This document shows, one piece after another, positions 9,796 through 59,399 of a DNA stretch of 64,000 nt; position 1 is the first letter of the stretch; every line of letters starts with the position of its first letter. The notes below the pieces were generated by a model. It had not been told where the DNA came from. It saw only the letters and a program-made list of their open reading frames with translations, and ran no database searches. The position numbers and the translations under genes were made by a program. The DNA comes from a bacterium (lineage in GTDB: Bacteria; Elusimicrobiota; Elusimicrobia; UBA1565; UBA9628): positions 1,244 through 65,243 of the forward strand of contig JAJZCM010000004.1 of assembly GCA_021846045.1 (NCBI GenBank), written 5' to 3'.

Positions 9796-10442
9796 TCGTC
9801 GTTTTACTAGGCGCCCCAGGATCGGGAAAAGGCACCCAAGCCAAATTTTTAAGCGCGAAATATGGGCTCGTGCACTTGGCTACGGGGGATATTTTTCGTA
9901 GCGAAATCGCAGAGAAAACCCCGCTGGGAATCAAGGCTCAGGCCTACGTAAAGACGGGAAAACTGGTCCCCGATGATTTAGTGACGGAAATGGTGGCCGC
10001 GCGGTTTAACTCTAATGAAGGGCGTTATTTATTAGATGGTTTTCCCAGAAATCTCGCTCAAGCCCAATCATTGTCTTCAATTCTTGTCCATGAAAATTTG
10101 TCGATTGATTTGGTCGTTTTGCTCAAGATCTCGCAGGAATTGGCCCTGGAGCGCATTATTTCTCGAAGGGTTTGCTCTCAATGTGGAGAAGTTTACAATA
10201 TCCAGACCAAGCCTGCTTTAAATGGAAAATGTAGGACTTGCGGCGGGGATGTCGTTTTACGGGAAGATGATTTTGAAGCGACCGCTAGAAAACGACTGAT
10301 GGTTTTTGAAGATATTACGCGCCCGATGATCGCCTATTATCAATCAGAGTCCGTTTTTAGAGAGGTCGATGCCAGCCGCAAGCCTGAAGATGTCAATGCG
10401 GCCTTGTCGATGCTTATTGATTCAATTTTCGCCAAATCATGA
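9792..10442 (+). CDS. adk: Adenylate kinase (Zn-lid type)
   Basis: GAPGSGKGTQ, LDGFPR, CSQC/CRTC lid. Confidence 0.97.
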   Translation: MIVVLLGAPGSGKGTQAKFLSAKYGLVHLATGDIFRSEIAEKTPLGIKAQAYVKTGKLVPDDLVTEMVAARFNSNEGRYLLDGFPRNLAQAQSLSSILVHENLSIDLVVLLKISQELALERIISRRVCSQCGEVYNIQTKPALNGKCRTCGGDVVLREDDFEATARKRLMVFEDITRPMIAYYQSESVFREVDASRKPEDVNAALSMLIDSIFAKS

Positions 10443-11221
10443 GTTCCACTGTGCTGACGCCAAAGTCCCCTCGGACAGTAGAGATGAAAACCGAAAAAGA
10501 AATTGCCATGATGCGCCGCGCCGGCGCGGTTGTTGCTGGAGCCTTGGCGATGTTGCGGAAAACTCTATCGGTTGGCATGAGCACCAAGGATATCGACGGG
10601 CTGGCGATGAGCTATCTGGAAAAAAATAACGCCAAACCCGCGTTTTTGGGATATCGGGACTTTCCCGCTTCAATTTGCGTTTCGATCAATTCTGAAGTGG
10701 TTCATGGTATTCCGTCGGCGAAAAGAAAAGTTTCAAATGGTGATATTGTGAGTCTTGATTTCGGCTGTATTGTGGACGGTTTTTACGCGGATGCGGCAGT
10801 GACTGTTCCCGTGGGGAAAGTTTCCGATGAGGCTTTAAAACTAATCCGCGTCACCGAGGAGTCTCTCGAGCGCGGAATCGCGTCAGCCTTAGCTGGAAAT
10901 CGTCTTGGGGATATCGGCTTTGCCGTTCAATCTCATTGCGAACAAGCGGGTTTTTCTGTTGTGCGTGATTTTGTTGGGCATGGCATTGGACGCGCTCTTC
11001 ATGAAGAGCCGCAGGTGCCTAATTATGGCAAGAAGGGAACGGGCCTTCGTTTGGTCTCCGGCATGGCGCTGGCAATTGAGCCGATGGTTAATGCCGGAGG
11101 GCCCGAAGTTCGGATTTTAGACGATGAATGGACGGCGGTAACCCGTGATGGGCGGTTGTCCGCGCATTTTGAACATACGGTAGCCATTACCGATAAAGGG
11201 CCGGAGATTTTAACTCGATGA
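10439..11221 (+). CDS. map: Methionine aminopeptidase type I
   Basis: [34 protein letters not shown]. Confidence 0.97.
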
Positions 11222-11460
11222 GAAAAATTAATAGCGAAAAAGAAGAAAAGAAAGGCGACAAGATCGAAGTCGAAGGGAGTATCTTAGAAGCCCTTCCTAA
11301 TGCGATGTTTCGGGTTGAAATTGCCCCGGGGAAAATCGTTTTGGCCCATATTTCAGGTCGGATGAGAATGCACTACATTAAAATTTTGCCCGGAGACCGC
11401 GTCAAACTTGAGCTGTCACCTTATGACTTGACCCGCGGGCGTATTGTTTTTAGGGAATAA
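11218..11460 (+). CDS. infA: Translation initiation factor IF-1
   Basis: [27 protein letters not shown]. Confidence 0.98.
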
Positions 11461-11475
11461 TGGAGAGGTGTTGAA

Positions 11476-11589
11476 ATGAAAGTTAGAGCGAGCGTTAAAC
11501 CGATTTGCCAGAAGTGCAAAGTCATTAAAAGGGGACGAGCTATTCGCGTGTTTTGCTCGAACCCTAAACATAAACAGAGACAAGGATAA
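11476..11589 (+). CDS. rpmJ: 50S ribosomal protein L36 (too short for the ORF track)
   Basis: Translated by hand: [37 protein letters not shown]; SD GGAGAGG upstream. Confidence 0.97.
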
Positions 11590-11605
11590 GTAAAGGAGAA
11601 CGATT

Positions 11606-12013
11606 ATGGCGCGCGTTGCAGGTGTGGATTTGCCTAAAGGGAAGAGGGTGGATGTCGCTTTGCGGTATTTATATGGATTGGGGAAAACGACATCCAACCA
11701 ACTTCTTCAAAAATTAAACGGAGCCGTTGACCCGGCGACCCGTGTGAAGGATTTGACGGAGAACCAAGTTGGTCTCATCAATAACTTATTGGTTAAGGAA
11801 TACAAAGTTGAGGGAGAATTGCGGCGCGAAATTCAATCCAATGTTCAGCGCTTGCAGGAAATCGGCTCTTTCCGCGGACAGCGGCATCGCCGGAACCTTC
11901 CTCTTCGTGGACAGCGGACGCGGACCAATGCGCGTACCCGTCGCGGACGTCGGAGAACGGTGGGAGCGGGAAAGGCTGAAAAGCCTCAAGCGAAAGCCCC
12001 GGCGAAGGCTTAA
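11606..12013 (+). CDS. rpsM: 30S ribosomal protein S13
   Basis: [22 protein letters not shown]. Confidence 0.98.
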
Positions 12014-12028
12014 GGTTTGGAGGCATTT

Positions 12029-12445
12029 ATGACAGAAGAAAAATCCGGCGCCCAAGGCGCAAAACCGGCAATTCCGGCGAAGAAAAAAAATTGGAAACAT
12101 TTGAGTTTCGCGAAAGTGTTTATTCAGTGTTCCTTTAACAATACGATTGTTTCCTTAACCGACGACAAAGGGGATGTCCTCGCTTGGGCTTCCGCAGGCG
12201 TCAATGGTTTTAAAGGAACAAAAAAGGGAACTCCTTTTGCCGCCGGCGTCACGGCCGGAAAGGTGGCTAAAAAAGCCTTGGAATTGGGAGTCAAGCAGAT
12301 TGTCGTTTTTGTAAAAGGTCCTGGGCCCGGACGGGAAACCGCCGTGCGCGCTCTTGGAAACGCGGGGCTGACGATTCTTTCTTTGAAAGATGTTTCGCCG
12401 CTTCCGCATAATGGGTGCCGGCCGCCGAAGTCGAGGAGGGTGTAA
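12029..12445 (+). CDS. rpsK: 30S ribosomal protein S11
   Basis: [29 protein letters not shown]; SD GGAGG favours ATG 12029. Confidence 0.98.
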
Positions 12446-12448
12446 TTC

Positions 12449-13072
12449 ATGGCTAATTATAGCGGACCCGTTTGCAAACTTTGCCGTCGGGAGCAAACCA
12501 AGCTTTTTCTTAAAGGCGACAAGTGCCATACGCGCTGCGTTTTAGATAAGCGTCCAACCAAGCCCGGAATGGCGGGCGTTCAACGGGGAAAAATGTCGGC
12601 TTATGCCGTGCGTTTGAGGGAAAAACAGAAGCTTCGCCGTTTTGTTTTGATGACGGAAAAGCCTTTTCGCCGATGGGTGGAGCAGGCTTCCAAAGCCGCC
12701 AACAGCGGAGCTGAATTATTGACCCTTTTGGAAATGCGGCTTGATAATGTGGTGAGAAGAATGGGAGTCGCTTCTTCTCTCAAAACCGCCCGGCAGATTG
12801 TTTCTCACGGGCATATCAAAGTCAACGGCCGCTGGCTCAATATTCCCTCTTATCGTTGCCGCGTGGGGGATGTCGTCGCCTTGGACCCAAAACTCAAGGA
12901 AAACGTGGGAGTCAAATTGAGCCTTGAAACCGCTCAGAGACTGAACAATCGCCCTAACTATATGGAGTTTGACGTGACCGCAATGTCGGCGAAAGTAACC
13001 CGTTTGCCGGAACGCAGCGAGGTTTCTCTGCCGGTTTCCGAGCAGCTGATTGTCGAATACTATTCAAGATAA
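12449..13072 (+). CDS. rpsD: 30S ribosomal protein S4
   Basis: GPVCKLCRRE, LEMRLDNVV, ARQIVSHGH, IVEYYSR. Confidence 0.98.
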   Translation: MANYSGPVCKLCRREQTKLFLKGDKCHTRCVLDKRPTKPGMAGVQRGKMSAYAVRLREKQKLRRFVLMTEKPFRRWVEQASKAANSGAELLTLLEMRLDNVVRRMGVASSLKTARQIVSHGHIKVNGRWLNIPSYRCRVGDVVALDPKLKENVGVKLSLETAQRLNNRPNYMEFDVTAMSAKVTRLPERSEVSLPVSEQLIVEYYSR

Positions 13073-13090
13073 AACTAGAGAGAGGATGCC

Positions 13091-14092
13091 ATGGCCCATT
13101 ACAAAGAATTGATCTTTCCGCAAAAATTGAGCGTAGATGAGCGGACGATGTCCGATAGTTACGCAAAATTCGTCGCAGAGCCTTATGAAAGAGGCTACGG
13201 ACACACGGTTGGAAATGCGCTCAGACGCGTTCTTCTTTCCAGCCTTGAGGGAGCGGCCGTGACCGCCGTCCGCGTGGAAAAAGCTCCTCATGAGTACATG
13301 ACGATTCCGGGAGTGCGGGAAGATGTGATGAATATTCTTCTCAATCTCAAGAAACTCAGGCTTAAAATGTTCTCTTCCGGACCTGAAATTCTTTATTTAG
13401 AAGCCAACAAAGAAGGCGCGGTTGTGGCGTCTCATATTCAGAAAAACGCCAACGTGGAGATCGTTAATGGGAATTTGGTCTTGGCTCATCTTGAGCCTGG
13501 CGCCAAATTATCGATGGAAATCGAAGTTTCACGCGGGCGCGGATATATCACTGCGGATGAACTTCGCAATCAGAATCACTGGCCGGCCGGGTTTGTTCCG
13601 CTGGATGCTTTATTCTCGCCTGTTTCCAAGGTCCATTATGATGTTGAAAATGCGCGCGTTGGCCAAGTCACCGATTATGATCGCCTGATTTTGGAAATTT
13701 GGACTGATTCGACACTGAACCCCGCGGAAGCGTTGATTCAGGCCTCCAAACTTCTGAGAGAATCTCTCAATATCTTTATCCCCGAGGAAGAGGGCGCTTC
13801 TGCCGCAGGGGCCTCCGAAGCGGGAAGCGTCGAAGGCGTCCCTGAGGCGAAACTCAAGGATATCTTGAACCAATCGGTCGACATGATTGAGTTGTCCTCC
13901 CGCGCGGCCAATTGCCTGAAAGTCGCCCATATTAAAACGGTGGGCGAATTAGTCTCAAAGCGGGACGAAGAGCTTCTCGCAGTTAAAAATTTCGGGCAGA
14001 AGTCGCTTGATGAAATTAAAGAACGGCTGAAAGATATGGGCCTATCTTTGGGAATGGATGTTCCCGAAGGGTCCGTTTCCTCCGCCTCTTAA
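13091..14092 (+). CDS. rpoA: RNA polymerase alpha subunit
   Basis: EPYERGYGHTVGNALRRVLLSS, DYDRL, KNFGQKSL. Confidence 0.98.
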   Translation: MAHYKELIFPQKLSVDERTMSDSYAKFVAEPYERGYGHTVGNALRRVLLSSLEGAAVTAVRVEKAPHEYMTIPGVREDVMNILLNLKKLRLKMFSSGPEILYLEANKEGAVVASHIQKNANVEIVNGNLVLAHLEPGAKLSMEIEVSRGRGYITADELRNQNHWPAGFVPLDALFSPVSKVHYDVENARVGQVTDYDRLILEIWTDSTLNPAEALIQASKLLRESLNIFIPEEEGASAAGASEAGSVEGVPEAKLKDILNQSVDMIELSSRAANCLKVAHIKTVGELVSKRDEELLAVKNFGQKSLDEIKERLKDMGLSLGMDVPEGSVSSAS

Positions 14093-14117
14093 AAAAGCCG
14101 GTTTTTGAGGAGACTTT

Positions 14118-14462
14118 ATGGTAAAAAATATGGGAGCGCGAAAGTTGGGCGTCACCTCTTCCCATCGCCGCGCGATGTTGAGAAATATGGCGACAAGCTT
14201 GTTTATTCACGAGAAGGTGGAGACTACTTTGGCCAAGGCCAAGGAGTTGAGGCCTTTTGCCGAACGCATTATCACCGCCGCAAAAAAAGGCCAGCACTAT
14301 ATGGTTCGTCGCCAGGTTCAAGATAAAAAAGCTTATGAGAAACTTTTTGATACCTTGGCTCAGCGCTATACCTCTCGTCCTGGCGGCTACGTTCGCATCT
14401 TGAAGCTCGCGCAAAGACAAGGCGACGGAGCGCAACGCGGTTTAGTCGAGCTTTTATCGTAG
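14118..14462 (+). CDS. rplQ: 50S ribosomal protein L17
   Basis: HRRAMLRN, TTLAKAKELR, RPGGYVRI. Confidence 0.97.
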   Translation: MVKNMGARKLGVTSSHRRAMLRNMATSLFIHEKVETTLAKAKELRPFAERIITAAKKGQHYMVRRQVQDKKAYEKLFDTLAQRYTSRPGGYVRILKLAQRQGDGAQRGLVELLS

Positions 14463-14471
14463 AATATACCA

Positions 14472-15512
14472 ATGCTTGATTTTTTCTTCCGCCTTTTCTC
14501 CAACGACATGGGCATTGACCTGGGCACTGCCAATACCTTGGTCTATGTTAAAGGCCAGGGAATTGTTTTAAGAGAGCCCTCCGTTGTCGCCATCGATCGG
14601 GAAAGTCGGCGTTTATTAGCCATCGGCGCCGAAGCAAAAAAAATGCTGGGGCGCACTCCGGCATCAATCATCGCGGTTCGTCCTCTCAAGAACGGAGTGA
14701 TCGCCGATTTTGAAGCGACGCAAGAGATGATTAAGTATTTCATCCGCAAAGTGCATAATCGCCGTTCTCTTCTGCATCCGCGGGTCGTGATTGGAATTCC
14801 TTCGGGAATTACCGAAGTGGAAAGAAGAGCCGTTCAGGAATCGGCTCAACAGGCGGGAGCGCGAGATGTGCATCTGATCGAAGAGCCGATGGCCGCGGCT
14901 ATTGGGGCGGATTTGCCGATTTCCGAGCCGAGAGGCAATTTTATCGTGGATATCGGCGGTGGAACGACGGAAGCGGCCGTGATTTCTTTGGGCGGTTTAG
15001 TTGTTTCCAAATCCCTGGATATCGCCGGAGACGAGATGGATGAGGCCATTGTCGCCCATTTCCGCAGAAAATATAATTTGTTGATTGGGGAATCGACGGC
15101 TGAGGAAGTGAAAATTCAGATCGGCTCGGTTTTCCCCTTAAAAGAAGAAAAGACGATGGAGGTTAAAGGAAGAGATCAGGCGACCGGGTTGCCTAAGACC
15201 GTTTTAATTACTTCTGAAGAGGTCAGGCAAGCCCTTTTAGATCCGGTTCAACTGATACTAGACGTCATTAAGAACACTTTAGAAGAAACGCCTGCGGAGT
15301 TGTCCGCCGATTTGGTTGATCGTGGCATTATGCTTGCAGGAGGGGGATCGCTTCTTCGCGGCCTCCCTGACTTGATTCGGCAGGAAACCGAGCTTCCAGT
15401 TCATCGCTCGGCCGATCCCCTGAGCTGCGTTGCTATCGGGACCGGTAAATTCCTGGAAGAACTTGACCGTATAATGGAACACCGCCACAGATTTGCCGTG
15501 ACCCGCTCCTAG
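14472..15512 (+). CDS. mreB: Rod shape-determining actin-like protein MreB
   Basis: [38 protein letters not shown]. Confidence 0.98.
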
Positions 15513-15594
15513 TTTGCGCTATTTGGAGTTGGAATTTCTGCCCGTCGGCGTTGTGTGTTCTTCCTAAAGAAGCGTTGTCTCTAACTAATTGAAT

Positions 15595-16452
15595 ATGCAC
15601 CGCGAGTTGCGGCTAGCCAATCGACTGGCGATTTTCTTCGTTGGAATTTCCGTCCTTCTTCTTTCCTTGCCCTTATCTGGGCCGGTCGCTTCTTTTAAAT
15701 TTGCCCTGCAATATTTGATTGAGCCGGAACTTTATCAGGGTTCTATCGGTCTTGAACGTTTGTCTGAGTTGCCGTCTTCTCTGAAAAAATTATTGCAGGC
15801 CGACATTCAAAATAGGAGTTTAACAGATCAAATCAAAATGGAGCCGGTCTTGGAATCGGAAATCGAGTCGTTAAAAACTGAAAACGATCGATTGCGCTCC
15901 GAAATGGATTTAGGAAAGAGGATTTCCTTTTCATTTGCCTGGGCGCGGGTAGTTAAAAGATCCCCCGCTGATTGGTATCAGGATTTTATTATTTCAATTG
16001 GGAAAAACAAAGGGATTGATCCCAATGATCCGGTTTTTGCCGTCAATGGCCGTAGTCTTGCCGCAATAGGGCGGGTGGTTGAGGTTCGCTCCAATACTGC
16101 GGTCGTTCAGTTGCTGACTAGCGATATTTCTGCGGTTGACTCTTTTATCGTATCTCAAAGTTCCCACACCCACGGGGCGTTTAATGGGCTTGTCCAAGGG
16201 TTGGCCGCTCCGGATTTGCAGATTAGCTATCTTCCGGTTCAAGCCCCCCTCAAGGAAGGAGACAAGGTTTATACTTCTCCCAATAGCGCGAGTTTTCCTC
16301 CATCTATCTTTATTGGGACAGTCGCCAAGGTCTATCCTGTCGATCCATTTCTAATTTTCAAATCCGCCGATATCCGCCCGGCTTTATCGCCGTCCGAGAT
16401 TAATGAGGTTTTAGTGGGCCGCGGAATTAGGAAGACGGAAATCAGCCGATGA
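15595..16452 (+). CDS. mreC: Rod shape-determining protein MreC
   Basis: N-terminal TM, coiled coil LKTENDRLR, IGRVVEV..NTAVVQLLT; follows mreB. Confidence 0.9.
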   Translation: MHRELRLANRLAIFFVGISVLLLSLPLSGPVASFKFALQYLIEPELYQGSIGLERLSELPSSLKKLLQADIQNRSLTDQIKMEPVLESEIESLKTENDRLRSEMDLGKRISFSFAWARVVKRSPADWYQDFIISIGKNKGIDPNDPVFAVNGRSLAAIGRVVEVRSNTAVVQLLTSDISAVDSFIVSQSSHTHGAFNGLVQGLAAPDLQISYLPVQAPLKEGDKVYTSPNSASFPPSIFIGTVAKVYPVDPFLIFKSADIRPALSPSEINEVLVGRGIRKTEISR

Positions 16453-16946
16453 AATTGATCAAGGGCGCGGCAATTTTTTTCTTCGGATTAGTGGGAGAGT
16501 GGATTTTTTCGCGCTATTTATCGTTCCACGGACTTAACCCCCAGATTTTATTGATTTTAACAATCGGCGTGGCGGCTTTCAACGGCACTCCTGAAGCGAT
16601 GGTGTTTGGGTTTTTCTGGGGTCTTTGTTGGGACGCGCTAAGTCTCAATTTGTTCGGCGCGCGAGCTTTGGCTTTGACCCTGGTTGCCTATGGGCTTGGT
16701 CTCGTCAGGAGGCAGGTGGATATGGTTACCCCGGGAGCGCAGGCTATTGTCGCTGTTATCGCGACGGTTCTCTATCGGATGCTCCTGGGATTTATTTATC
16801 TGATTTTCTCCGGTCAGTTCTTGTGGCTGGGATGGACGATTTTCCTTCTTGAACCTGTTTATAACGGTATTTTCTGTTTTATCTTGGCCATTCTACGGCC
16901 CAATTCTTATTTCTCCTCGTCTAGGCGCGGAAGCATTCTTTCATGA
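16449..16946 (+). CDS. mreD: Rod shape-determining protein MreD
   Basis: Polytopic membrane protein with GFFWGLCWD; position in the operon. Confidence 0.87.
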   Translation: MKLIKGAAIFFFGLVGEWIFSRYLSFHGLNPQILLILTIGVAAFNGTPEAMVFGFFWGLCWDALSLNLFGARALALTLVAYGLGLVRRQVDMVTPGAQAIVAVIATVLYRMLLGFIYLIFSGQFLWLGWTIFLLEPVYNGIFCFILAILRPNSYFSSSRRGSILS

Positions 16947-18781
16947 AAAGAAATTTTTCTGCCGAGAGAATGAGGATACTCCTAATGGGGTTTTTTATCA
17001 TATCGGTTGTGATGATCCTAAGGCTTTTCCAGATGCAAATTTTGGAGAGAGCTTCTTATACGCTAGCTGCGGAGCGCAATCGCACCGAGATGGTGTATCA
17101 AACGGCTCCTCGAGGGATTATTTACGATAGAAACGGCGTCCCCCTTGCGACCAACGAGCCGGTTTTTTCCCTCATTTATCTTCCATCGCAATCGACCACT
17201 CAATCTGAGTTGAACCGTTTAGCCGATGAGTTAAGCCGTACCCTGAGGCAAAATCCAGAGGACATATTGGCGAAGCTGGAACAGGCTAGATCGGCTCGGA
17301 CGGCTTTGCGCATCGCCGAAAACCTGCCAGTGCCGGTGATGTTTCGACTCTCGGAGTTAAAGCCCTTTTATCCTGGAATAGATTTGGTGTTGGAAGCGCG
17401 GCGCTATTATCCTTTCGGGTCCTTTGCAAGCCACTTGATCGGCTACATGGGTAAAATTAATCCCAGACAGTGGGTTCGCCTAAAAGCCCGGAATTATCGC
17501 ATGGATTCCCGGATCGGGCGCTTGGGAGTTGAATCGGTTTTTGAAAGGCAGTTGCGGGGAACAGACGGCGCCGTCAAAATAGAGGTCGACGCGCATGGGA
17601 AGATCCAAAAGATTTTAAGACGTCTTCCATGGAAAGACGGGCGGAATGTGCATTTAACTTTGGACGCCATTGTTCAAAAAGCCGCCGATGAGGGGCTGAG
17701 CCGTACTTCGACTCGGAGAGGAGCCGTGGTCGCTTTAGATCCGTCCAACGGCGACATTCTTGCGTTCGCGGCGGCTCCTGATTTCGATCCCAATCAGTTT
17801 TTAGGCGCCGATCCGTTCTCCCTTGATTATTCGACCTTTGTTCCCTCTTCGGTGCCTGAATTTGATCGCGCGATTTCCGGGCTTTATGCCCCGGGCTCGA
17901 TCTTTAAAACAATCGTCTCCGTGGCGGGAATTAATGAGGGAAAATTAGATCCCTCGCAAATTGTTTTTTGTCCTGGTTATTTTAGGCTTGGCCGGAGAAC
18001 CTTCTTGTGTTGGAATCATCGCGGGCATGGGAATGTCGATTTTTTTACCGGCCTTGCAGAGTCCTGTGACGTCTATTTTTATAAGATGGGTCTCGTTATC
18101 GGCGCGGATTTGATCGAGAAATACGAAAAGATTTTTCATTTGGGGAAAAAAACCGGGATTGCCTTAAAGGGCGAGGAGGCCGGTAATTTGTTCGGTCCTG
18201 AAACCTCCATGCAAGAAGGAAAGACTTGGGTTGGAGGGAACACTCTTAATCTCGCGATTGGTCAAGGTCGTCTTTTGGTCACCCCAATTCAGATGGCGGT
18301 GGTTGCCGCAGCCTTGGCTAATCATGGAACTTTATGGAGGCCTCAATACTTGAGATCCATCGCTCCAGAAAGCAACGGGGAAATTTTAAGACAAAGCCCC
18401 CAGCAAATCGGTTTCGTTCGGGCGAGCAAGAAGACCTGGAATTTATTGGACCAGGCGATGGCCTTGGTAGTCGCCTCGGGGACGGCCCGGGGGGCCGCCA
18501 TCAAGGGAATTGAGGTCTGGGGAAAAACAGGAACTGCGCAGAACTCTTCCGGCAAGGATCATGCCTGGTTTATCGCTTTTGCGGCCAAACCCGGACAAGC
18601 CCCTTCGATTGCGGTTTCAGTCCTAGTTGAAAACGGCGGCCATGGGGCTTCCGCCGCCGTTCCTATTGCGCGGCAGGTCATCGCCGCTGCCTTTCGGGTT
18701 GGAAAAAAAATTCAATATCAATGGCCTAAATCTTCACCTAAGAAGATTGATTCTTCCGCCGTGAAGGGAGAGACGCTATGA
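16943..18781 (+). CDS. mrdA: Penicillin-binding protein 2
   Basis: APRGIIYDRNG; transpeptidase motifs PGSIFK, SCD, KTGTAQ. Confidence 0.96.
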   Translation: MKRNFSAERMRILLMGFFIISVVMILRLFQMQILERASYTLAAERNRTEMVYQTAPRGIIYDRNGVPLATNEPVFSLIYLPSQSTTQSELNRLADELSRTLRQNPEDILAKLEQARSARTALRIAENLPVPVMFRLSELKPFYPGIDLVLEARRYYPFGSFASHLIGYMGKINPRQWVRLKARNYRMDSRIGRLGVESVFERQLRGTDGAVKIEVDAHGKIQKILRRLPWKDGRNVHLTLDAIVQKAADEGLSRTSTRRGAVVALDPSNGDILAFAAAPDFDPNQFLGADPFSLDYSTFVPSSVPEFDRAISGLYAPGSIFKTIVSVAGINEGKLDPSQIVFCPGYFRLGRRTFLCWNHRGHGNVDFFTGLAESCDVYFYKMGLVIGADLIEKYEKIFHLGKKTGIALKGEEAGNLFGPETSMQEGKTWVGGNTLNLAIGQGRLLVTPIQMAVVAAALANHGTLWRPQYLRSIAPESNGEILRQSPQQIGFVRASKKTWNLLDQAMALVVASGTARGAAIKGIEVWGKTGTAQNSSGKDHAWFIAFAAKPGQAPSIAVSVLVENGGHGASAAVPIARQVIAAAFRVGKKIQYQWPKSSPKKIDSSAVKGETL

Positions 18782-20121
18782 CGCCCCTTTCTCATTCATC
18801 CGCAAGAAAGAGCCGTCTTGACGGCGCTTTCCTGGGCTCGGTCTTGGCTCTTCTCGTCGTGGGGAGTTTGGCGGTTCTGTCGGCCGCCCGGCCTCTTCCG
18901 TATTACCATCAAGCCCTTGAGCGCCATTTCTCAGCCATGTTTTTTGGCCTTCTTATTTTTGCCGTCGCCGCGAATTTCGCTTATGAGGCCTATGAAGACC
19001 AATTCTGGGTTATTTATGGGACCGTTATTTTCTGCCTCGTCGCGGTCCTGATTTTTGGGACTGTTCATAAAGGCCATCGTTCCTGGATTCAATTGGGTTT
19101 TTTCGCATTCCAACCATCGGAATTCGCCCGAGTCGGGATGGTGTTAATTTTGGCCTCGATTCTTGACAAAAGAGCATTGAAGATGGAGTATGTCTCGACG
19201 GTCTTTATGTCCTTGGCGGCTATTTTGCCGATCGCGGCTTTGATTGTCAAACAACCCGATTTCTCGATGACATTGACTCTTTTTCCTATTTTCTTCGCGA
19301 TGCTTTTTTGCGCTGGAGCCGAATGGGAACATTTGGCGGGTTTCATCGTATTGGCTATTGCCGCGATTTCAATGCCGTTTCTCTATCTATTTTTGAGCGT
19401 CTATCATCCCTTCCCCGTTTCAGGAAGTTTTCTCCGGTTCTTCATGGAGGTATTTAGTTCCAAGGAGTCTGAGTTTGTGTTGGTTTTGGTTTTGGCCGTT
19501 ATTTTTGGGGCAGCCTATTATCTTAATCACTTGATGCATTGGCGCTTAAGAATGAGACTGTTTTTTATTTTTTGGATGTTGCTGACTTCAGGGGTCGTGG
19601 CGGGAATCACGGTCAGCCATAAGCTGAAGGGATATCAAAAAAGCCGGTTTACCGCTTATATCAATCCTCATTCCGATATCCATGGAGCGGCTTATCACGT
19701 CCATCAATCGCAGATTGCCATAGGATCCGGCGGAATCGTGGGAAAGGGACTTTTCTCCGGAACCCAGTCGCAGTTGGGTTTTCTCCCCGAACGGCACACG
19801 GATTTCATTTATTCCGTTATCGGTGAAGAGACGGGGTTTGTTGGCGCCGTCCTCGTCGTTCTTCTTTATTCGGGAATGATTTGGAGGATTGCCGATATAG
19901 GCTTTAACGCACGGGATCGCTACGGGTATCTAGTCTGTTGTGGAATTGGAGCGATGTTTGCCTTTGATTTCATTTTGAATGTAGGGATGTGCCTAGGGCT
20001 TTTTCCGGTCGCAGGAATTCCGCTCCCCTTGCTTTCCTACGGAGGATCCAGCTTGATGGCTAGTTTATGGTCTTTAGGAATTGTCGCTAATGTCGGTAGG
20101 CGCAAGTATGCGCTTTTATAA
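18778..20121 (+). CDS. rodA: Rod shape-determining protein RodA (SEDS family), with internal insertion
   Basis: FQPSEF, QPDFS, QSQIAIGSGG, PERHTDFI, IPLPLLSYGGSS. Confidence 0.95.
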   Translation: MTPLSHSSARKSRLDGAFLGSVLALLVVGSLAVLSAARPLPYYHQALERHFSAMFFGLLIFAVAANFAYEAYEDQFWVIYGTVIFCLVAVLIFGTVHKGHRSWIQLGFFAFQPSEFARVGMVLILASILDKRALKMEYVSTVFMSLAAILPIAALIVKQPDFSMTLTLFPIFFAMLFCAGAEWEHLAGFIVLAIAAISMPFLYLFLSVYHPFPVSGSFLRFFMEVFSSKESEFVLVLVLAVIFGAAYYLNHLMHWRLRMRLFFIFWMLLTSGVVAGITVSHKLKGYQKSRFTAYINPHSDIHGAAYHVHQSQIAIGSGGIVGKGLFSGTQSQLGFLPERHTDFIYSVIGEETGFVGAVLVVLLYSGMIWRIADIGFNARDRYGYLVCCGIGAMFAFDFILNVGMCLGLFPVAGIPLPLLSYGGSSLMASLWSLGIVANVGRRKYALL

Positions 20122-23065: not shown

Positions 23066-23873
23066 CATTCGGGAGACCGCTCGCCCTATTGGAGTGTTTG
23101 ACTCGGGGATTGGAGGGCTCACCGTTTTTAAAGCTTTGCGCGCATTGATGCCGGAAGAGGATATAATTTATTTTGGGGACACGGCGCATCTGCCCTATGG
23201 TTCGAAATCCAAGGCTTCGATCGTTCAATTTTCGGTTGAGATCGCCCGTTTCTTATGCCGACAAAATATTAAAGCGTTGGTCGTGGCTTGCAATACCTCC
23301 ACCGCGGTGGCCTTGTCCGAAATTAAAAAAGCCGTTTCTATTCCGGTCGAAGGGGTTATTGTTCCCGGAGCGCGGGCTTGCTCCCGGATTGGTTCCCAGA
23401 AAATTGGAGTGATTGGAACCGAGGGGACGGTTAGGTCAGGGGCTTATGCGAAGGAAATAAAAAAATTTTTTCCTCAAGCCCGTGTTTTTCAAGTGGCGTG
23501 TCCTCTTTTTGTTCCCTTGGTTGAAGAGGGATGGTGGAATTTTGACGTGACCGAAGCGGTGGCGCGGATTTACCTCAAATCCCTTCAAAAAGCCCGGGTG
23601 GACTCCCTGGTTTTGGGGTGCACTCATTACCCGGTTATTAAATCGGTCATTGCGCGCGTCATGGGGAGAAAGGTATCGTTGATTGATTCTGGAGAAGAAA
23701 CGGCCAAGGAGTTTGAAAAAACATTGGAGTCGCTCAAATTGAGAAAGAAGAAAGGCCGCGGCTGGTCTCGCTTTTACGCTTCCGATGATCCCGGGCGGTT
23801 CTTGAAGATGTCCCGCCGCTTTCTCGGCTCCTCAATTACGGTCAACCAAGTCTTAAAGAAAAATTTTGAATAA
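23034..23873 (+). CDS. murI: Glutamate racemase
   Basis: IGVFDSGIGGLTV, PYGSKS, VACNTST, LGCTHYP. Confidence 0.97.
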   Translation: MQKKSTIQKNSIRETARPIGVFDSGIGGLTVFKALRALMPEEDIIYFGDTAHLPYGSKSKASIVQFSVEIARFLCRQNIKALVVACNTSTAVALSEIKKAVSIPVEGVIVPGARACSRIGSQKIGVIGTEGTVRSGAYAKEIKKFFPQARVFQVACPLFVPLVEEGWWNFDVTEAVARIYLKSLQKARVDSLVLGCTHYPVIKSVIARVMGRKVSLIDSGEETAKEFEKTLESLKLRKKKGRGWSRFYASDDPGRFLKMSRRFLGSSITVNQVLKKNFE

Positions 23874-23963
23874 CTGCTCAGGTTCGTCATTCCGGCGCAA
23901 GCCGGAATCCAGAAAATCGCTGCTCTGGACCCCGGCTTGCGCCGGGGTGACGTGAGTAGTTAA
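23870..23963 (+). mobile_element. 94-bp MITE-like element carrying an inverted CGTC-REP hairpin dimer (copy 1)
   Basis: Imperfect 12-bp terminal inverted repeats ATAACTGCTCAG / GTGAGTAGTTAA; direct repeat AATTTTGA at 23862-23869 and 23964-23971; core 23885-23952. Confidence 0.85.
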
Positions 23964-28610: not shown

Positions 28611-28704
28611 GCAACTACTCACGTCACCCCGACGAAAGTCGGGGTCCAGAGCAGCAATCTTCTGGATTCCGGCTTGCGCCGGAATGACGAACCTGAGCAG
28701 TTAC
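28611..28704 (-). mobile_element. 94-bp MITE-like element with CGTC-REP dimer (copy 2, inverted relative to copy 1)
   Basis: Ends GCAACTACTCAC / CTGAGCAGTTAC; perfect 8-bp direct repeat AAACGAAG at 28603-28610 and 28705-28712; near-identical to the reverse complement of copy 1. Confidence 0.87.
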
Positions 28705-40537: not shown

Positions 40538-41185
40538 TCATGTATTTTTTATTCCCTGAGGGCAGAAGGATTTAAATAAGCAGGACTGACATAAGGGCTT
40601 TCTCGCCGCGCAGACTCTTCTACCATGCCGAACCATCGCATGTCCGAAAAAAATCCATTCTTTTCGCGGAATCACCGCCATTAAATCTTTCTCAATAAGC
40701 GCGGGGTTAGTCTTTTTCGTCAGCCCCAACCTGAACGAGACGCGTTTGACATGGGTGTCGACGACGATTCCTTCCGCGAGGCTAAAAGCCGTTCCGAGAA
40801 TGACGTTGGCGGTTTTTCTGGCGACGCCGCGCAGCCTAATCAATTCGGCCATGGTCTTGGGGAGTTTCCCATTAAAGTCTTTGAGAAGAGTCCTTGCCGA
40901 TTCTTGAATCGACAAGGACTTTGAGCGAAAAAAACCGGTTGGGCGGATGATGGACTCAATTTCCTTGATATCGGCTTTGACGTAATCTTCAATGGCTGGG
41001 TATCTCTTAAAAAGATGAGGGGTCACGGCGTTGACCCTTTTGTCGGTGCATTGAGCGGATAAAATCGTGGCGACGGCCAGTTCCCAGGGGGATCCGAAAT
41101 TGAGTTCGCATTGGGCGTCGGGATAAAGCGTTTTAAGGCCTTTGAGAACCTTCGCGGCTTGTTCGGCGCGTTCCGTGACCCTCAT
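40538..41185 (-). CDS. nth: Endonuclease III
   Basis: ILSAQCTDKRVN, GVARKTANV, VDTHV, C-terminal 4Fe-4S cysteines. Confidence 0.96.
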   Translation of the reverse strand: MRVTERAEQAAKVLKGLKTLYPDAQCELNFGSPWELAVATILSAQCTDKRVNAVTPHLFKRYPAIEDYVKADIKEIESIIRPTGFFRSKSLSIQESARTLLKDFNGKLPKTMAELIRLRGVARKTANVILGTAFSLAEGIVVDTHVKRVSFRLGLTKKTNPALIEKDLMAVIPRKEWIFFGHAMVRHGRRVCAARKPLCQSCLFKSFCPQGIKNT

Positions 41186-42912
41186 TTCTTCTTTATGTAA
41201 TAATAATCGAGTCCCAAGCCAATCGGGTCGTCATGAAAATCCCGAACTTCCCGTCTCAAGGCGTAAATGGCGGTCGGATGCGCGACCGGAATATTCAGGG
41301 CGCTTTCGCTCGCGAGCTTGAGAATTTCTTCTGTTAATTTTTTTTGTTTAAGGCGATTGCCGGTTGAAGCGAATTGTTCGAGAAGCGAATCCATCTTGGG
41401 GTCCTTATATTCTTGATCAAGAGGATAGCGGCCGTTTGAGTCATAAAATGCGTAGAGAAAATTATAGGCGTTGGGATAATCGGCATACCAGCCGCGCATG
41501 AAAATCGGCATCAAATGCTTTTCGCTTTTGTCCAAGAAAGAAGGCCAATCAAGCCCGCGAATATCGATATGAAACTTCGGGTTGAGCGCTTCCACGTTCT
41601 TTTTCAGGATAAGGGCAGCGGCCATGCGATTTTCAGAGCCGGTATTATAAGTGAGAGTGAAATGAAAGCCTTTTTCCCACGCTTGTCCATGAAAGGCTCG
41701 CTTAAAATGAGAGACGGCTTTTTGAAGATTATAAGAACGGTAAGGAAAGCGTGTGTTGGCCTGTAAAAGTTTTTGGGGGACGACGCTTTTAGCCAAGGTT
41801 CCTTCGCCTTTTAAGGCGTCGCGGACAAATGTGGGGGCGTCAAAGGCGTAGGTCATGCCGAGGCGGATGTCACGGTCTGAGAAAAAATCGGGAGGTATCC
41901 CGTCTTCTCCCAGATGGCCGGAGCCGATGTCGCGATTAGCCATGGGACTAATATGGAAAGTAAAGAAAAATACCGGGTCGGTGGCTAATCGCGCCAGGTG
42001 GGGAATAATTCTCACTCCGGGGATATTGGAAACTTCGCTTAAGAAAACGGGAGATACGCTGATAGCGTCGGCGCCCCCGGCTTTAAGCATTAATTTCTGA
42101 GTTGAAAATTCAGGAATGGTGCGAATAATTACCTGGGAAAGAGAAGCGGGTTTTCTCCAATAATGATCATTTCTTTTCAGGATGATGTATTTGGAAATGG
42201 AATTCCATAGCGCGAGTTTAAACGGCCCGCTTCCATCCATGTGATTTCGCAGATAGCTGCGGTCTTCAGGGGGATTATTGAAATGGGCGAGAGAGGCCAA
42301 CGTTCCATCCCAGTCTCCATGTTCAACGGCCCAACTCTTCGGCAAAACATAGGACCAGTGGGCCATGATTGAGAGAAAAGGGGCAAAGGGGCGCTTAAGA
42401 GTGATCACGACGTCGTTTCCTTCGACGCGGACGGCTTTAAGCGCTGCGGCAAAAATGGATTTAAGGGACGTTCCTTTTTCCTGGGTGGAACTGATCCCTA
42501 GAATGGGTTCTAAAAGGAGACCCGAGGGGCCGCCGGGCCGATCCATGAGCATAAAGCGAAGCAAGGAGTAGCGAACATCCTCGGGAGTTAAAATTTTTCC
42601 ATCTTGAAAGTGAATGTCTTTGCGGATATGAAATCGGTAGACTCTTCCGCCCGAAGAAATGCCTCCATTTTTGACCGAAGGAACTGTGCTCGCTATTAAA
42701 GGAATTAGGCGCGTAGCGGAATCGGCGTCAAAGCCAATCAACGTATCATAAACGTTAAAAATAACGTTTTGGCTGGCGCTGTCATAAGGATAAGCCGGGT
42801 CGAGGCTTGTGATTTCATCAACCTGAGCGAGAATGAAGGTTTGGGATGAAGCAGAGAACGCCGGACGCGTTAGCGTTAGTAAAATTAAAAATAATCCCCA
42901 TATTTTTCCCAT
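41182..42912 (-). CDS. ABC transporter substrate-binding protein, family 5 (peptide/nickel)
   Basis: Signal peptide; SLDPAY, YDTL, FQDGKILTPEDVRYS, GSGPFKL, RNDHYW, GWYADYP. Confidence 0.9.
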   Translation of the reverse strand: MGKIWGLFLILLTLTRPAFSASSQTFILAQVDEITSLDPAYPYDSASQNVIFNVYDTLIGFDADSATRLIPLIASTVPSVKNGGISSGGRVYRFHIRKDIHFQDGKILTPEDVRYSLLRFMLMDRPGGPSGLLLEPILGISSTQEKGTSLKSIFAAALKAVRVEGNDVVITLKRPFAPFLSIMAHWSYVLPKSWAVEHGDWDGTLASLAHFNNPPEDRSYLRNHMDGSGPFKLALWNSISKYIILKRNDHYWRKPASLSQVIIRTIPEFSTQKLMLKAGGADAISVSPVFLSEVSNIPGVRIIPHLARLATDPVFFFTFHISPMANRDIGSGHLGEDGIPPDFFSDRDIRLGMTYAFDAPTFVRDALKGEGTLAKSVVPQKLLQANTRFPYRSYNLQKAVSHFKRAFHGQAWEKGFHFTLTYNTGSENRMAAALILKKNVEALNPKFHIDIRGLDWPSFLDKSEKHLMPIFMRGWYADYPNAYNFLYAFYDSNGRYPLDQEYKDPKMDSLLEQFASTGNRLKQKKLTEEILKLASESALNIPVAHPTAIYALRREVRDFHDDPIGLGLDYYYIKKK

Positions 42913-42936
42913 AAGAGAAGTATAGAATATAGGGAC

Positions 42937-43078
42937 ATAGCGGAGTGTTCCACAAATTCATTTGCATTCGTCACCCCGACGAAAGTCGGGGTCCAGGCCC
43001 GCGTAAAAGACTGGATTCCGGCTTTCGCCGGAATGACGACGAGGCAAATGTAAGGAAGCGTTGGGGACACTACACTAG
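42937..43078. repeat. CGTC-REP dimer (core 42969-43038) inside a different nested inverted-repeat shell
   Basis: Same hairpin pair as copies 1/2; CATTTGC/GCAAATG inner inverted repeat; outer CGGAGTGTTCC / GGGACACTACA bracketed by ATAG / CTAG. Confidence 0.78.
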
Positions 43079-43174
43079 CCTCAGGCGGCGTAACAAATTT
43101 GTCATTGATTTTAAGGGAAGAGTTGTTATACTTTTGTTTGAGATGCGGAAATTTTGTGGAGGCTTAGAGGTTCT

Positions 43175-45187
43175 ATGAGCGAGCGATATTGGATTTTTCA
43201 AAACAGTCAAGTCATCGGCCCTTTTTCGGTGGAGGATCTATTGTCTCGCCCGGATTTTTCCGATGACGCCTTGGTCTGCCCTGAGGGGCGGCAAGGCACT
43301 GACGCCGGAGATTGGCAAAGAGCGAGTTTAATGCCTTCCATTGTGCAGGCGATGTCCAAGCCTAAATCGCCGGTTCCCCAAGCTGCGCAGAGTCAGGCCG
43401 TTCCGAGCGTGGAATCCGGTGGCGACGCTCTTTTAGTTAAGGAATTGAGTTTGTTAGGGGCTGTCCATGAGAAATTGGGAGCCTTAGGACAAAGCGTGAG
43501 TCAGATGCAGGAATCGGTTAAAGACGTGCGGAGAGAGTTGGACGGCTTCCGATCTAAATTTGATGGCGACAATCGGCAAAGCGAAAATTGGAACCGGCGA
43601 ATTAAAAACCTAGAGGATCTGTCCGCGTCCTTTGGCGGCTTGAAAGACAATATAGAGAAAATTTCCTCCGATTCTCGCGCTCAAGGAGCTTTGCTCGAGG
43701 AATCGACCCGCTCGCAGAAGCGTTTAATCGAGGAACTTAATCAGAAGCTGGAGGCTCTCCCTCTGTCTGGGCAAGGAAGCGCGGCTCTTGAGACGCAAGT
43801 TTCGGATTTAAATTCCCGCATCCAAGAGCTGACGGAAAAAGTCGAGGGGGGTGCGCAGAATTCCGCTTTAAGCGCGTCGTTAGAGGAGTTGCGGGGAATG
43901 CTCGGCGGACTTAAGGATGAAGTTGCGGAGCTAAAACTCAGGCAAGAGCCCGCCGCTTCCGCGATCACCTCATTAGAACAGCCGTTGGGGTCTGCGATGG
44001 CCCAACCCGTTTCACCTCAAACGTCGCCGGAAGGGGCTTCAGTCGGGGTCGCGGGGTTTCCCCCTTCTCCGTTTGCCCCGCCGGCTTCCATGTCCGAAGC
44101 GCCTCAACCGTCCTCCATGGAAACGACGTTCCCTCAAGTCCCGGACAGCGCAGCGCCGGAGTTTATTCTCCCAACCGGCAACATCCCTGATTCAAATCCA
44201 GCCGCGTCTCCGGACATGCCCATGGACATCAGTCAACCGTCCGGTTTTGGAGACAGTCTTATTCAGCCTGGCGCTCCCGTTGGCGCGGAGGCGCCGATGG
44301 GGATTTCAGCCGAACCGGCATCTGCGGACAGTTCTTCTCTCTTTGAATCTCCATCCGAAGCAGCAGAAGCCACGGCCAAAGCGCAGAAAAAACCGAAGAA
44401 GGGAACCTGGTTTTTGATTTCGATCGTTGCGGGAGGCGCTTTGTTTGCTCTCGCTTATGTCCTAGGCCTTATTCCCGGGCTGGAGCTTGCCAAGCCAAAA
44501 CCTGCCGCTCAGCGCTTGCCTCTTGTTTCATCGCCGCCATCTCTTCCCATGCCTAAGCAGTCGCCGATTGCCGCCCCGGCTCCGCTTCCGCCGGAGCAGG
44601 AAACAGCCTTCAAGGATTCCGCGATTCAGATGGTCCAAAATTGGCCGCTATCTTCGGGCGGAAAAACAGTTTCCCAAGCCCTGAGAGCGACCAACGGCCC
44701 CTTAGGAGACTTGAGTCCTTGGAGCGCCGAAAAAATCAAGGATAATCTCTACCAGGTCAATTATCAACCCCCTCCCTCGATGAATGGAATGCGGAAATCC
44801 TACGAGTTCCAGGCGGATTTGTCTCTTCATAAGGTCGTCGGACAAAATCAGGCGGCGGTGAATTTGTTGTCCGGAAAGTCCCAATTTCATCCCATGAAGA
44901 AAAAATTGATAAGGCGCCCGTTGGTCAAGAAGAGAATTCACGTGGTTAAAGGAAAGAAGTTCGCCTCAAGAAAGAAAGTCGTCGCCAAGAAAGCCGTCGT
45001 GAAAAAAACGGAAGAGAAAAAAGGCGACATCATGCCGGGCATTCCAAGTCCGCAACCGGCGACCGGGAGTTCTTCAGCCATGCCCCTTCCGAGATCCTCT
45101 CACGCGGCTCCAACGGCTCAGCCCCAGGCGGCGTCTTCATCGGGGCAAAGTCAGAATCAAGAGTTGGACCAGTTGCTCAAACCCTGA
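43175..45187 (+). CDS. GYF_2-like domain, coiled-coil, Pro-rich single-TM membrane protein
   Basis: YWIFQNSQVIGPFSVEDL..W N-terminus; heptad-rich 90-260; TM WFLISIVAGGALFALAYVLGLI. Confidence 0.75.
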   Translation: MSERYWIFQNSQVIGPFSVEDLLSRPDFSDDALVCPEGRQGTDAGDWQRASLMPSIVQAMSKPKSPVPQAAQSQAVPSVESGGDALLVKELSLLGAVHEKLGALGQSVSQMQESVKDVRRELDGFRSKFDGDNRQSENWNRRIKNLEDLSASFGGLKDNIEKISSDSRAQGALLEESTRSQKRLIEELNQKLEALPLSGQGSAALETQVSDLNSRIQELTEKVEGGAQNSALSASLEELRGMLGGLKDEVAELKLRQEPAASAITSLEQPLGSAMAQPVSPQTSPEGASVGVAGFPPSPFAPPASMSEAPQPSSMETTFPQVPDSAAPEFILPTGNIPDSNPAASPDMPMDISQPSGFGDSLIQPGAPVGAEAPMGISAEPASADSSSLFESPSEAAEATAKAQKKPKKGTWFLISIVAGGALFALAYVLGLIPGLELAKPKPAAQRLPLVSSPPSLPMPKQSPIAAPAPLPPEQETAFKDSAIQMVQNWPLSSGGKTVSQALRATNGPLGDLSPWSAEKIKDNLYQVNYQPPPSMNGMRKSYEFQADLSLHKVVGQNQAAVNLLSGKSQFHPMKKKLIRRPLVKKRIHVVKGKKFASRKKVVAKKAVVKKTEEKKGDIMPGIPSPQPATGSSSAMPLPRSSHAAPTAQPQAASSSGQSQNQELDQLLKP

Positions 45188-59327: not shown

Positions 59328-59399
59328 GGGCCTGTAGTTCAACGGATAGAGCGCGTGGCTTCGAACCACGAGATCCGGGTTCGATTCCTGGCGGGCCCA
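59328..59399 (+). tRNA. tRNA-Arg (anticodon TCG), CCA not encoded
   Basis: Acceptor GGGCCTG/CGGGCCC; anticodon arm CGTGG-CTTCGAA-CCACG; T-arm CCGGG-TTCGATT-CCTGG. Confidence 0.95.

Follow-up and report, generated by a model that had tools for sequence, protein, structure and literature searches.

A probable IS630-derived MITE carrying a CGTC-1 REP heterodimer in an Elusimicrobia genome

In the window, by which we mean the whole 64,000-nucleotide stretch of Elusimicrobiota DNA analysed here, positions 42940-43075 form a 136-bp, non-coding insertion unit with TA on both sides (ATAG/CTAG), and we read this unit, with a probability of about 0.87, as a non-autonomous MITE derived from an IS630-family insertion sequence, in which a CGTC-1 REP heterodimer replaces the transposase gene and which was pasted as a unit into a TA dinucleotide. 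We read it so because the site is empty in relatives, because copies in the source metagenome end at the edges of the shell that encloses the REP dimer, and because the same composite of shell and core is present in at least six assemblies. The element therefore belongs to two known kinds, the IS630-family MITE and the CGTC-1 REP heterodimer, and most likely it was moved in trans by an IS630-family transposase. Homology to insertion-sequence ends, presence and absence between genomes, multiple copies and constraint on the hairpins are observed in the data set out below. The parts of the element and its borders are the following.

42932..42937, no strand: extra bases GGGACA beside the left TA, missing in the empty-site relatives (alignment with L236 and L237)
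42938..42939, no strand: TA on the left side of what is presumed to be a TA target duplication, lying inside ATAG 42937-42940 (from the sequence)
42940..42968, + strand: left end (inverted repeat) of the putative MITE, GCGGAGTGTTCCACAAATTCATTTGCATT, a diverged IS630-family left end by homology to L163 and to the full-length insertion sequence
42969..42996, + strand: CGTC-1 REP unit 1, with CGTC tag, 8-bp stem ACCCCGAC/GTCGGGGT, GAAA loop and CCA(G) tail
42997..43010, no strand: 14-nt spacer GCCCGCGTAAAAGA between both REP units
43011..43038, - strand: CGTC-1 REP unit 2, reading on this strand CGTC, stem ATTCCGGC/GCCGGAAT, GAAA loop and CCAG
43039..43075, + strand: right end of the putative MITE, matching full-length right ends at 31-33 of 36 positions
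43076..43077, no strand: TA on the right side of this presumed duplication, inside CTAG 43075-43078
43079..43084, no strand: extra bases CCTCAG right of the element, missing in the empty-site relatives

The structure of the element is nested. In its middle are two hairpins of eight perfect pairs each, ACCCCGAC-GAAA-GTCGGGGT at 42973-42992 and ATTCCGGC-TTTC-GCCGGAAT at 43015-43034, and the two REP units to which they belong (42969-42996 and 43011-43038) are mutually inverted, with 29-nt arms that are 79% complementary. A perfect 7-nt inverted repeat, CATTTGC (42959-65) and GCAAATG (43044-50), surrounds this dimer; farther out CGGAGTGTTCC (42941-51) equals the reverse complement of the opposite side, TGTAGTGTCCC (43064-74), at 8 of 11 positions, and the edges are ATAG at 42937-40 and CTAG at 43075-78. 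An earlier sequence-only reading had placed the hairpins, both repeats and the edges just where we find them. By itself the outer inverted repeat is weak: when the 60-nt left flank was aligned locally with the reverse complement of the right flank, the result was z = 1.7 against shuffles, no better than chance, so that the reality of the shell rests on its homology to a repeated family. As single-stranded DNA the whole 142-nt stretch from 42937 to 43078 has a folding energy of -34.5 kcal/mol (z = -5.5), and the only open reading frames that overlap the element, of 61 and 77 aa, are made of repeat sequence. At gathering scores no Rfam family is found in the whole window except a tRNA at 59328-59399, and a search of 42880-43180 with E up to 10 gave no E better than 0.66, with scores well short of the gathering level; the weak hairpin-level matches seen at the locus were to Brucella BSnc120 and Xanthomonas sX14.

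The first clue to the nature of the shell came from two Elusimicrobia loci, found in the scan with the left REP unit described below, that also carry the right flank of the window. A scan with a motif of this flank, AATGT-AARGAAGCGYTGG-NNN-CACT, gave at least 117 loci among the matches listed, with hosts in Terriglobia, Nitrospirota, Binatia, Verrucomicrobia, Gemmatimonadota, Omnitrophota, Elusimicrobia and others, and among these listed matches the motif is mostly the 3' end of a gene, ..HNQNPRVFVWTA..KIAKCKEALDALH*. Many of the matches lie about 94 nt from contig ends, as is typical of an insertion sequence with many copies at which assemblies break. Full-length copies of this insertion sequence measure 1138-1142 bp (about 1140) and run from CTAGTGTAGTG.. 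to ..CACTACACTAG, the ends being also given as CTAGTGTAGTGCGTCATAAATAGCTTTACAT and ATGTAAAGAAGCGTTGGACGCACTACACTAG; they encode an ORF of 359 aa, which scores 274.1 bits against the IS630-family model NF033545 (cut-off 100) and contains Pfam DDE_3 and helix-turn-helix domains. IS630 transposases are Tc1/mariner-like DDE enzymes that bind the ends of their element via the helix-turn-helix domain. Judged by homology, the shell is the two terminal inverted repeats of this IS630-family insertion sequence. The sequence-only reading was thus correct in calling it unrelated to the GTAACTGCTCAG-type ends that enclose other REP dimers of the window.

The two ends are preserved unequally. The right end of the window's element agrees with those of full-length copies at 31-33 of 36 positions, and its left end at 21-23 of 37 positions; compared with the Elusimicrobia copy L163, the left end is 79% identical (31 of 39 positions without gaps, counting CTAG and the first bases of the core), and the element as a whole is 66-79% identical to Elusimicrobia copies. 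Moreover, 43043-43075 retains the last 11 codons of the transposase (GKCKEALGTLH), with the stop TAG at 43076-43078. In tblastn searches of the window the IS630-family transposase matched solely with its residues 349-359, at 43043-43075, and beyond this 11-codon fossil no transposase was found in the 64 kb with IS630- and IS4-family queries. At the right ends of the insertion sequence TA follows in 109 of 117 cases and TAG in 105 of 117, among the matches listed, from which it follows that the stop codon is completed by the TA duplication together with the G of a CTAG target. TA duplication is established for the IS630 family, in which 30 bp of each end suffice for ISY100 (PMC2170065), and for IS630 a preference for CTAG targets is described as well (PMC2170065 and its references). 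The CTAG-like target proposed from the sequence fits both properties and the flanking counts of the family. At the locus itself the duplication would be the TA at 42938-39 and 43076-77, a 2-nt repeat that carries little weight alone.

The composite of left end, CGTC dimer and right end is not confined to this locus; it occurs in at least nine copies in at least six Elusimicrobia genome assemblies, five of them in Elusimicrobia GWA2_69_24 (L045, L136, L163, L192 and L223) and further ones in at least four further assemblies (L128, L164, L220 and L048). The outer repeats, of which the sequence-only reading had allowed that they might be a chance feature of this one place, thus recur with the shell in other genomes as well as in the same metagenome. 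In these copies, at least nine in number, the junctions are recurrent, ..CATTT(G/A)CATT|CGTCA.. on the left and ..TGACG + 1-9 nt + CAAATGTAA.. on the right, and they abut the inner edge of the inverted repeats, as would fit a capture of the dimer as filler during repair of an excision gap. The insertion sequence also has plain internal-deletion derivatives (L185, L199) and MITEs that have no CGTC core (L188, L201, L207, L143), and in one Elusimicrobia genome an intact copy (L205) occurs together with 100-bp derivatives (L188, L201, L207). Among the copies no empty shell was seen, the smallest derivative being of 100 bp.

The source of the window is a mine-drainage metagenome, and its contigs give an independent view of the repeated unit. 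At the locus the depth of the study contigs is 30-50 in the flanks, about 180-680 in the shell and 10,000-20,000 in the hairpins. Contigs as deep as the source genome (27-40x) match the locus between 42937/8 and 43066-43080, and loose contig ends accumulate at 42938 and 43078; matches and loose ends at the edges of the shell together imply that the repeated unit has the coordinates of the element. Shell and core are found on at least four other contigs of genome-like depth in this metagenome, and these siblings, with 15-19 substitutions and 5-7 gaps, are about 83-88% identical to the copy in the window (about 12-17% diverged), which means that the family is old and gives no sign of recent activity. 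By its sequence, the copy in the window is likewise an old, moderately decayed MITE copy. In the source runs, whose contigs show presence rather than absence, no copy of the insertion sequence at 80% nucleotide identity or above was seen; conserved DDE patches were matched, one of them on a 2813-bp contig of genome-like depth.

Comparison with relatives shows what the site looks like when it is not occupied. Three Elusimicrobia assemblies encode relatives, 80-83% identical, of the solute-binding protein whose gene lies beside the element. At L236 and L237, where the flanking protein is 80-81% identical, the intergenic site is empty and reads GAATATAG|CGGGCGTAAC (..ATATAG|CGGG..); shell and core are both missing, and the window is longer by about 152 nt. 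Compared with these sites the insertion is not a clean addition of element and TA, for about 14 further bases are found, GGGACA on the left and CCTCAG(G) on the right. The GGGACA piece equals the terminus of the right end minus 6 nt, and these left extra bases may be the remnant of an older end. Within the source study itself the place is variable, too: an allele of run X2 skips 42932-43087, and an allele in one run has a different insert of 77-79 nt here. Such a different insert is also present in L238.

The insertion lies in a region with promoter-like sites, by which we mean consensus matches only. The two hexamers that concern us are these.

42926..42931, - strand: -10-like hexamer TATATT of the solute-binding-protein gene (41182-42912, - strand), part of an intact site in L236 and L237
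43098..43103, - strand: -35-like hexamer ATGACA of the leftward promoter-like site, in the window some 166 nt away from its -10

L236 and L237 have a sigma-70-like site, ATGACA-16-TATATT (10 of 12 positions), aimed at the solute-binding-protein gene, and back to back with it TTGATT-16-TATACT, aimed at the divergent gene. A leftward site of the ATGACA-16-TATATT type is no longer found in the window, where the element precedes the start codon of the solute-binding protein by 25 nt; judged from this alignment, the insertion separates the -35-like and -10-like hexamers of a site that is kept in L236 and L237. The sequence-only reading had put the element between divergent promoters. The intergenic position with back-to-back sites agrees with that, and the statement can be refined in that the element splits the leftward -35 from its -10. 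An effect on the predicted promoter of the ABC-transporter solute-binding-protein gene may be expected, and the insertion is a candidate for a natural mutation of this promoter in the Elusimicrobia population of the mine drainage. On transcription of the locus the metatranscriptome contigs of the source study, which do not cover it, are uninformative.

As to the core, Di Nocera et al. (2013) defined the CGTC-1 REP by a CGTC tag, an 8-bp stem, a 4-nt loop and a CCA tail, mostly arranged in head-to-head dimers (PMC3733652), and on comparison of its sequence with this description the core joins two unlike CGTC-1 REP hairpins head to head, as a heterodimer. The unpaired CGTC tag is found at 42969-72 (+) and 43038-35 (-), and likewise in the four other units of the window; both units of the dimer have eight perfect stem pairs and the GAAA loop, the CCA tail follows 6 of 6 REP units in the window, and the tags point outward in 3 of 3 dimers. 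The A-T and T-A pairs at stem positions 1-2, 'almost invariably' found in CGTC-1, are present in unit 2 (ATTCCGGC) and absent from unit 1 (ACCCCGAC), whose stem starts with AC rather than AT, a variant that is consistent across phyla.

We scanned the left unit over one genome per species and obtained at least 120 loci among the matches listed, which fall in delta-, alpha-, beta- and gammaproteobacteria, Elusimicrobia, Gemmatimonadales, Verrucomicrobia, Chloroflexota, Nitrospira, NC10, Omnitrophica and others. A partner unit, CTGGATTCCGGC-TTTC-GCCGGAATGAC or a compensated variant of it, stands 4-61 nt downstream in roughly two of every three of the 120 matches that were examined, and this partner lay outside the search pattern. 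From this cross-phylum sample came 79 head-to-head dimers with usable 60-nt flanks and spacers of 4 to 61 nt, while the pattern recognised no partner in 41 other matches. Across the 31 distinct variants of unit 2 found elsewhere (two mis-parsed units left out), 99.2% of the cells are paired and 5 of the 8 pairs show compensatory changes, which was matched by 0 of 500 shuffles; pairing and compensatory changes together show that the hairpin is under constraint. The combination of a CCCC stem with a TTCC stem is thus, on sequence comparison, a heterodimer conserved across phyla, its 27 + 27 nt being nearly invariant from Elusimicrobia to Proteobacteria. A spacer similar to GCCCGCGTAAAAGA occurs in the Elusimicrobia copy L220, as GCCGTAAAACGATT. 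The stem variant GAC/GTC is rare elsewhere (3 of 125 dimers) and is common to the IS630-type copy and one of the 94-bp copies of this genome described below, a shared rarity which suggests that cores were exchanged or that they were captured from a local pool.

It had been suggested that genes for RAYT/HUH or GIY-YIG enzymes might be found beside the core. This expectation was not borne out: 1005 ORFs within 700 bp of the dimers at 120 loci were clustered, and no family occurs at more than three loci, so that no recurrent neighbour gene is seen. The result agrees with the 2013 statement that CGTC REPs have no dedicated transposase (PMC3733652).

Other ways of explaining the locus must be weighed against these data. 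If the outer repeats were due to chance, the core would be a free-standing REP dimer, like a BIME or a REPIN, placed by a RAYT-type enzyme or formed in situ, and both the weak inverted repeat of the flanks (z = 1.7) and the lack of a significant flanking repeat around about 49 of the 79 CGTC dimers from other genomes would agree with it. However, about 29 + 37 nt of the flanks, 11 transposase codons included, show homology to insertion-sequence ends, the repeat unit of the siblings starts and stops at the outer edges of the shell and not at those of the core, and neither RAYT nor a recurrent gene is found near CGTC dimers, in line with PMC3733652; we give this explanation scarcely any chance at all. 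A two-step origin at this place, by which a coreless IS630-type MITE arrived before a CGTC dimer entered its centre, has in its favour the coreless MITEs of the same insertion sequence (L188, L201, L207, L143) and the description by Di Nocera et al. of REP dimers 'inserted within' palindromes (PMC3733652). Still, the junctions recur in at least nine copies from at least six other assemblies and in source contigs of the same depth, and such recurrent junctions mean that the composite predates the insertion at this locus; the empty sites, moreover, lack shell and core together. That the two steps happened here is extremely unlikely.

It is also conceivable that the structured block is primarily a host regulatory element, such as a 5' leader, a terminator or a protein-binding site, and not a mobile one. 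Its position 25 nt ahead of the solute-binding-protein start codon, its stable fold (z = -5.5) and the terminator-like score of one hairpin with a T-run on the - strand are of the kind expected from such an element, yet it is missing from the orthologous promoters L236 and L237, is replaced by a different insert in L238, has no Rfam match and splits a promoter-like site that is otherwise conserved, and we regard a primarily regulatory block as very unlikely. Several further ideas were dropped: integron attC sites, for which the spacing of about 500 bp in L068 had been considered, in view of the insertion-sequence ends and of no array being present here; CRISPR repeats for their wrong spacing; and an inside-out composite of two insertion sequences since the terminal bases face outward.

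In the IS630-derived MITE that we prefer, the sequence of events would be as follows. Around the CGTC dimer, the left end of the insertion sequence would have been retained over about 29 nt and its right end over about 37 nt; the composite would have been cut and pasted whole into the TA of an ATAG, duplicating this TA, within the spacer of the promoter-like site of the solute-binding-protein gene; and the transposase would have been supplied in trans, with the dimer dispersed along as a passenger.

The same kind of dimer is found in the window within another shell, in two comparators.

23870..23963, - strand: 94-bp element with the other shell and a CGTC heterodimer; 8-bp direct repeats AATTTTGA (23862-69, 23964-71)
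28611..28704, + strand: second 94-bp element with the other shell; 8-bp direct repeats AAACGAAG (28603-10, 28705-12)

The stems of these two dimers are equal to those studied here, the spacer differs (12 nt) and the ends are (G/A)(C/T)AACT(A/G)CTCA. Because their 8-bp duplications are perfect and are not the product of a TA-duplicating enzyme, the other shell was moved by a different enzyme. No copy of this shell, with GTAACTGCTCAG ends and 8-bp duplications, was present in any fetched locus. In other genomes, flanking inverted repeats at z of at least 4 surround 27 of 79 dimers and fall into at least eight unrelated sequence classes, about 49 of the 79 having no significant flanking repeat. 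One flank class, CAATGYCRTTAACTTAAG, is the end of a 1438-bp element with an IS4-family transposase, which scores 175.6 bits with NF033592 (cut-off 115), and the MITE forms of this type have 9-11-bp duplications, with L036 among them carrying the same CGTC heterodimer. Both the IS630-type and the IS4-type elements also have MITEs with other cargo, mostly palindromic.

One dimer is thus seen in different end types, namely the IS630 type, the 94-bp type with 8-bp duplications and, in other genomes, the IS4 type, as the sequence-only reading had stated on fewer of them. Its further view, of a modular cargo captured by different transposase systems, holds as far as different ends and enzymes are concerned, while the capture is something we infer. 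In a more general form, CGTC REPs would spread mainly as modular MITE cargo on the ends of unrelated insertion-sequence families (IS630, IS4 and the element with 8-bp duplications), with the palindromic dimer favoured since it aids the formation or the movement of the MITE and with cores exchanged within a genome; we put this forward tentatively, as a possibility that is rather less than even. Formation could be aided if the dimer were a self-complementary filler that lets two repaired ends anneal after excision, and movement if a cruciform or hairpin brought together ends only about 70 bp apart. The dimer may have come into the shells by repair capture, by insertion into the centres of MITEs or by recombination.

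Among known systems the nearest is CGTC-1 itself, including dRS3 of Neisseria and RPE-6 of Rickettsia, which is alike in tag, stem, loop, tail and head-to-head layout (PMC3733652); the dimer is a heterodimer here as in H. neapolitanus and C. taiwanensis, and likewise has no associated transposase gene (PMC3733652). It differs in that one unit has AC rather than AT at stem positions 1-2, in that Elusimicrobia, Gemmatimonadota, Nitrospirota, NC10, Chloroflexota and Omnitrophota are outside the five phyla listed in that paper (PMC3733652), and in that the dimer is embedded here in identifiable insertion-sequence ends. An enclosing family-specific repeat is also known around the CGTC-1 dimers of H. 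neapolitanus (a 41-bp palindrome) and the GTAG-15 dimers of A. variabilis (long palindromes), and no 'empty' palindromes were seen there (PMC3733652), just as no empty shell was seen here; those palindromes, however, are regarded as possible targets with no link to a transposase (PMC3733652), whereas here they are IS630 and IS4 ends.

IS630 MITEs such as mini-ISY100, with ends of 30 bp (PMC2170065), are alike in being short and non-coding, with IS630-type repeats, TA flanks and presumed cut-and-paste in trans. The parent here is another, environmentally widespread lineage of 1140 bp, with ends GTGTAGTG.. and CTAG flanks in about 90% of the copies listed, and the interior is a foreign REP dimer instead of leftover DNA of the insertion sequence. 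A relation of this type is also known in S. pneumoniae, where RUP is linked to IS630-Spn1. RUP is listed as a MITE (PMC3733652). QMITE2 of Coxiella burnetii is likewise a MITE with a REP interior, the short versions of which 'are essentially REP elements' according to the excerpted text of PMC5896051; in contrast it has a GTAG REP and variable direct repeats of 7-11 nt and is itself a target of IS1111, and in the same excerpts no parent insertion sequence is named for its ends (PMC5896051).

GTAG REP doublets are moved in the REPIN/RAYT system by REP-associated tyrosine transposases (Y1 HUH). The likeness is in the inverted doublet of REP hairpins that acts as one repeat unit, and the differences are the CGTC tag, the absence of a RAYT-like or recurrent neighbour gene, and the DDE-transposon ends with TA duplication.

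REPs are among the most abundant non-coding repeats of bacteria, and we know of no mobilising enzyme for the CGTC superfamily. Those who described the CGTC REPs suggested 'a broad spectrum of transposases' (PMC3733652). In the limited collection of literature searched, CGTC-tagged repeats appear together with MITEs only in PMC3733652 and in the excerpted text of PMC5896051, and as far as this literature shows it is new that the repeats enclosing CGTC dimers are the ends of IS630- and IS4-family elements. The MITE copy at this locus is, for its part, ordinary and ageing. What it suggests about the family is that hairpins without a transposase of their own could be moved by the enzymes of other elements, and a CGTC dimer within IS630 or IS4 ends with the expected duplications offers a concrete route for the movement of CGTC REPs, which can be assayed by transposition. 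It also suggests that many of the 'naked' REP dimers may be worn-down MITEs.

As shown by comparison with related Elusimicrobia, the IS630-derived MITE (42940-43075) splits a promoter-like site pointing at the solute-binding-protein gene on the - strand, whose -10 TATATT (42926-42931) and -35 ATGACA (43098-43103) now lie on either side of the element. In the two relatives where the insertion site is empty, the same promoter-like site is unbroken (L236, 3960-3987; L237, 1668-1695; 16-nt spacer, 10/12), and it stands back to back with that of the divergent gene. About 14 additional bases, which the empty sites lack, adjoin the MITE (42932-42937 and 43079-43084). Taking 6 nt out of the right-end terminus GGGACA[CTACAC]TAG gives GGGACA-TAG, so the GGGACA on the left may be left over from an older element end. 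The same TA/ATAG site holds a different insert, of 77-79 nt, in a third relative (L238, upstream of 4001) and on a 6174-bp contig from run X2 of the source mine-drainage metagenome, which represents an allele co-occurring in that community; this insert has no evident inverted repeat.

In the parent IS630-family element (L121-L235), the reading frame of the transposase continues right up to the element's final base, and its stop codon TAG is made of the duplicated TA and the G of the CTAG target, for example in L212 (3554-4695). At about 7133-7180 of locus L194, a right end is directly followed by a left end with one CTAG common to both (..CACTACGCTAGCGTAGTGAGTC..), and therefore this arrangement represents tandem or adjacent MITE copies.

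The cargos observed in the MITEs are nearly all palindromic. The same IS630- and IS4-type shells also carry other REP-like palindromes, namely GTCATTGCGAG...CTCGCAATGAC and GTCATTTCGA...TCGAAATGAC (loci L154, L216, L231, L232, L170; L287). In two loci, CGTC dimers are arranged in a way unlike that of the dispersed MITE copies: three dimers in one orientation lie about 490-510 bp apart in L068 (14-1036), and the dimer in a Vicinamibacteria contig (L109, 1-200) belongs to a head-to-tail array. Both hairpins of the main element (42973-42992 and 43015-43034) weakly match the Rfam model BSnc120 (Brucella sRNA 120) at its positions 46-65, with E of 0.66-1.9, and this model probably contains a CGTC-type REP hairpin; the only Rfam match at gathering score within the window is the tRNA gene at 59328-59399.

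The same CGTC heterodimer is enclosed by another shell, with inverted repeats (G/A)(C/T)AACT(A/G)CTCA, in both of the following elements:

23870-23963, 94-bp element, perfect 8-bp direct repeat AATTTTGA on both sides
28611-28704, 94-bp element, perfect 8-bp direct repeat AAACGAAG on both sides

The two shell types of the source genome have in common a compensated stem variant, CCCCGAC/GTCGGGG, seen in the IS630 type at 42973-42992 and in the 94-bp type at 28626-28645, and also present in locus L164. As this variant is rare, being found in 3 of the 125 dimers of the cross-phylum sample among the matches listed, its presence in both shells suggests that cores have been exchanged between them or captured out of a local pool.
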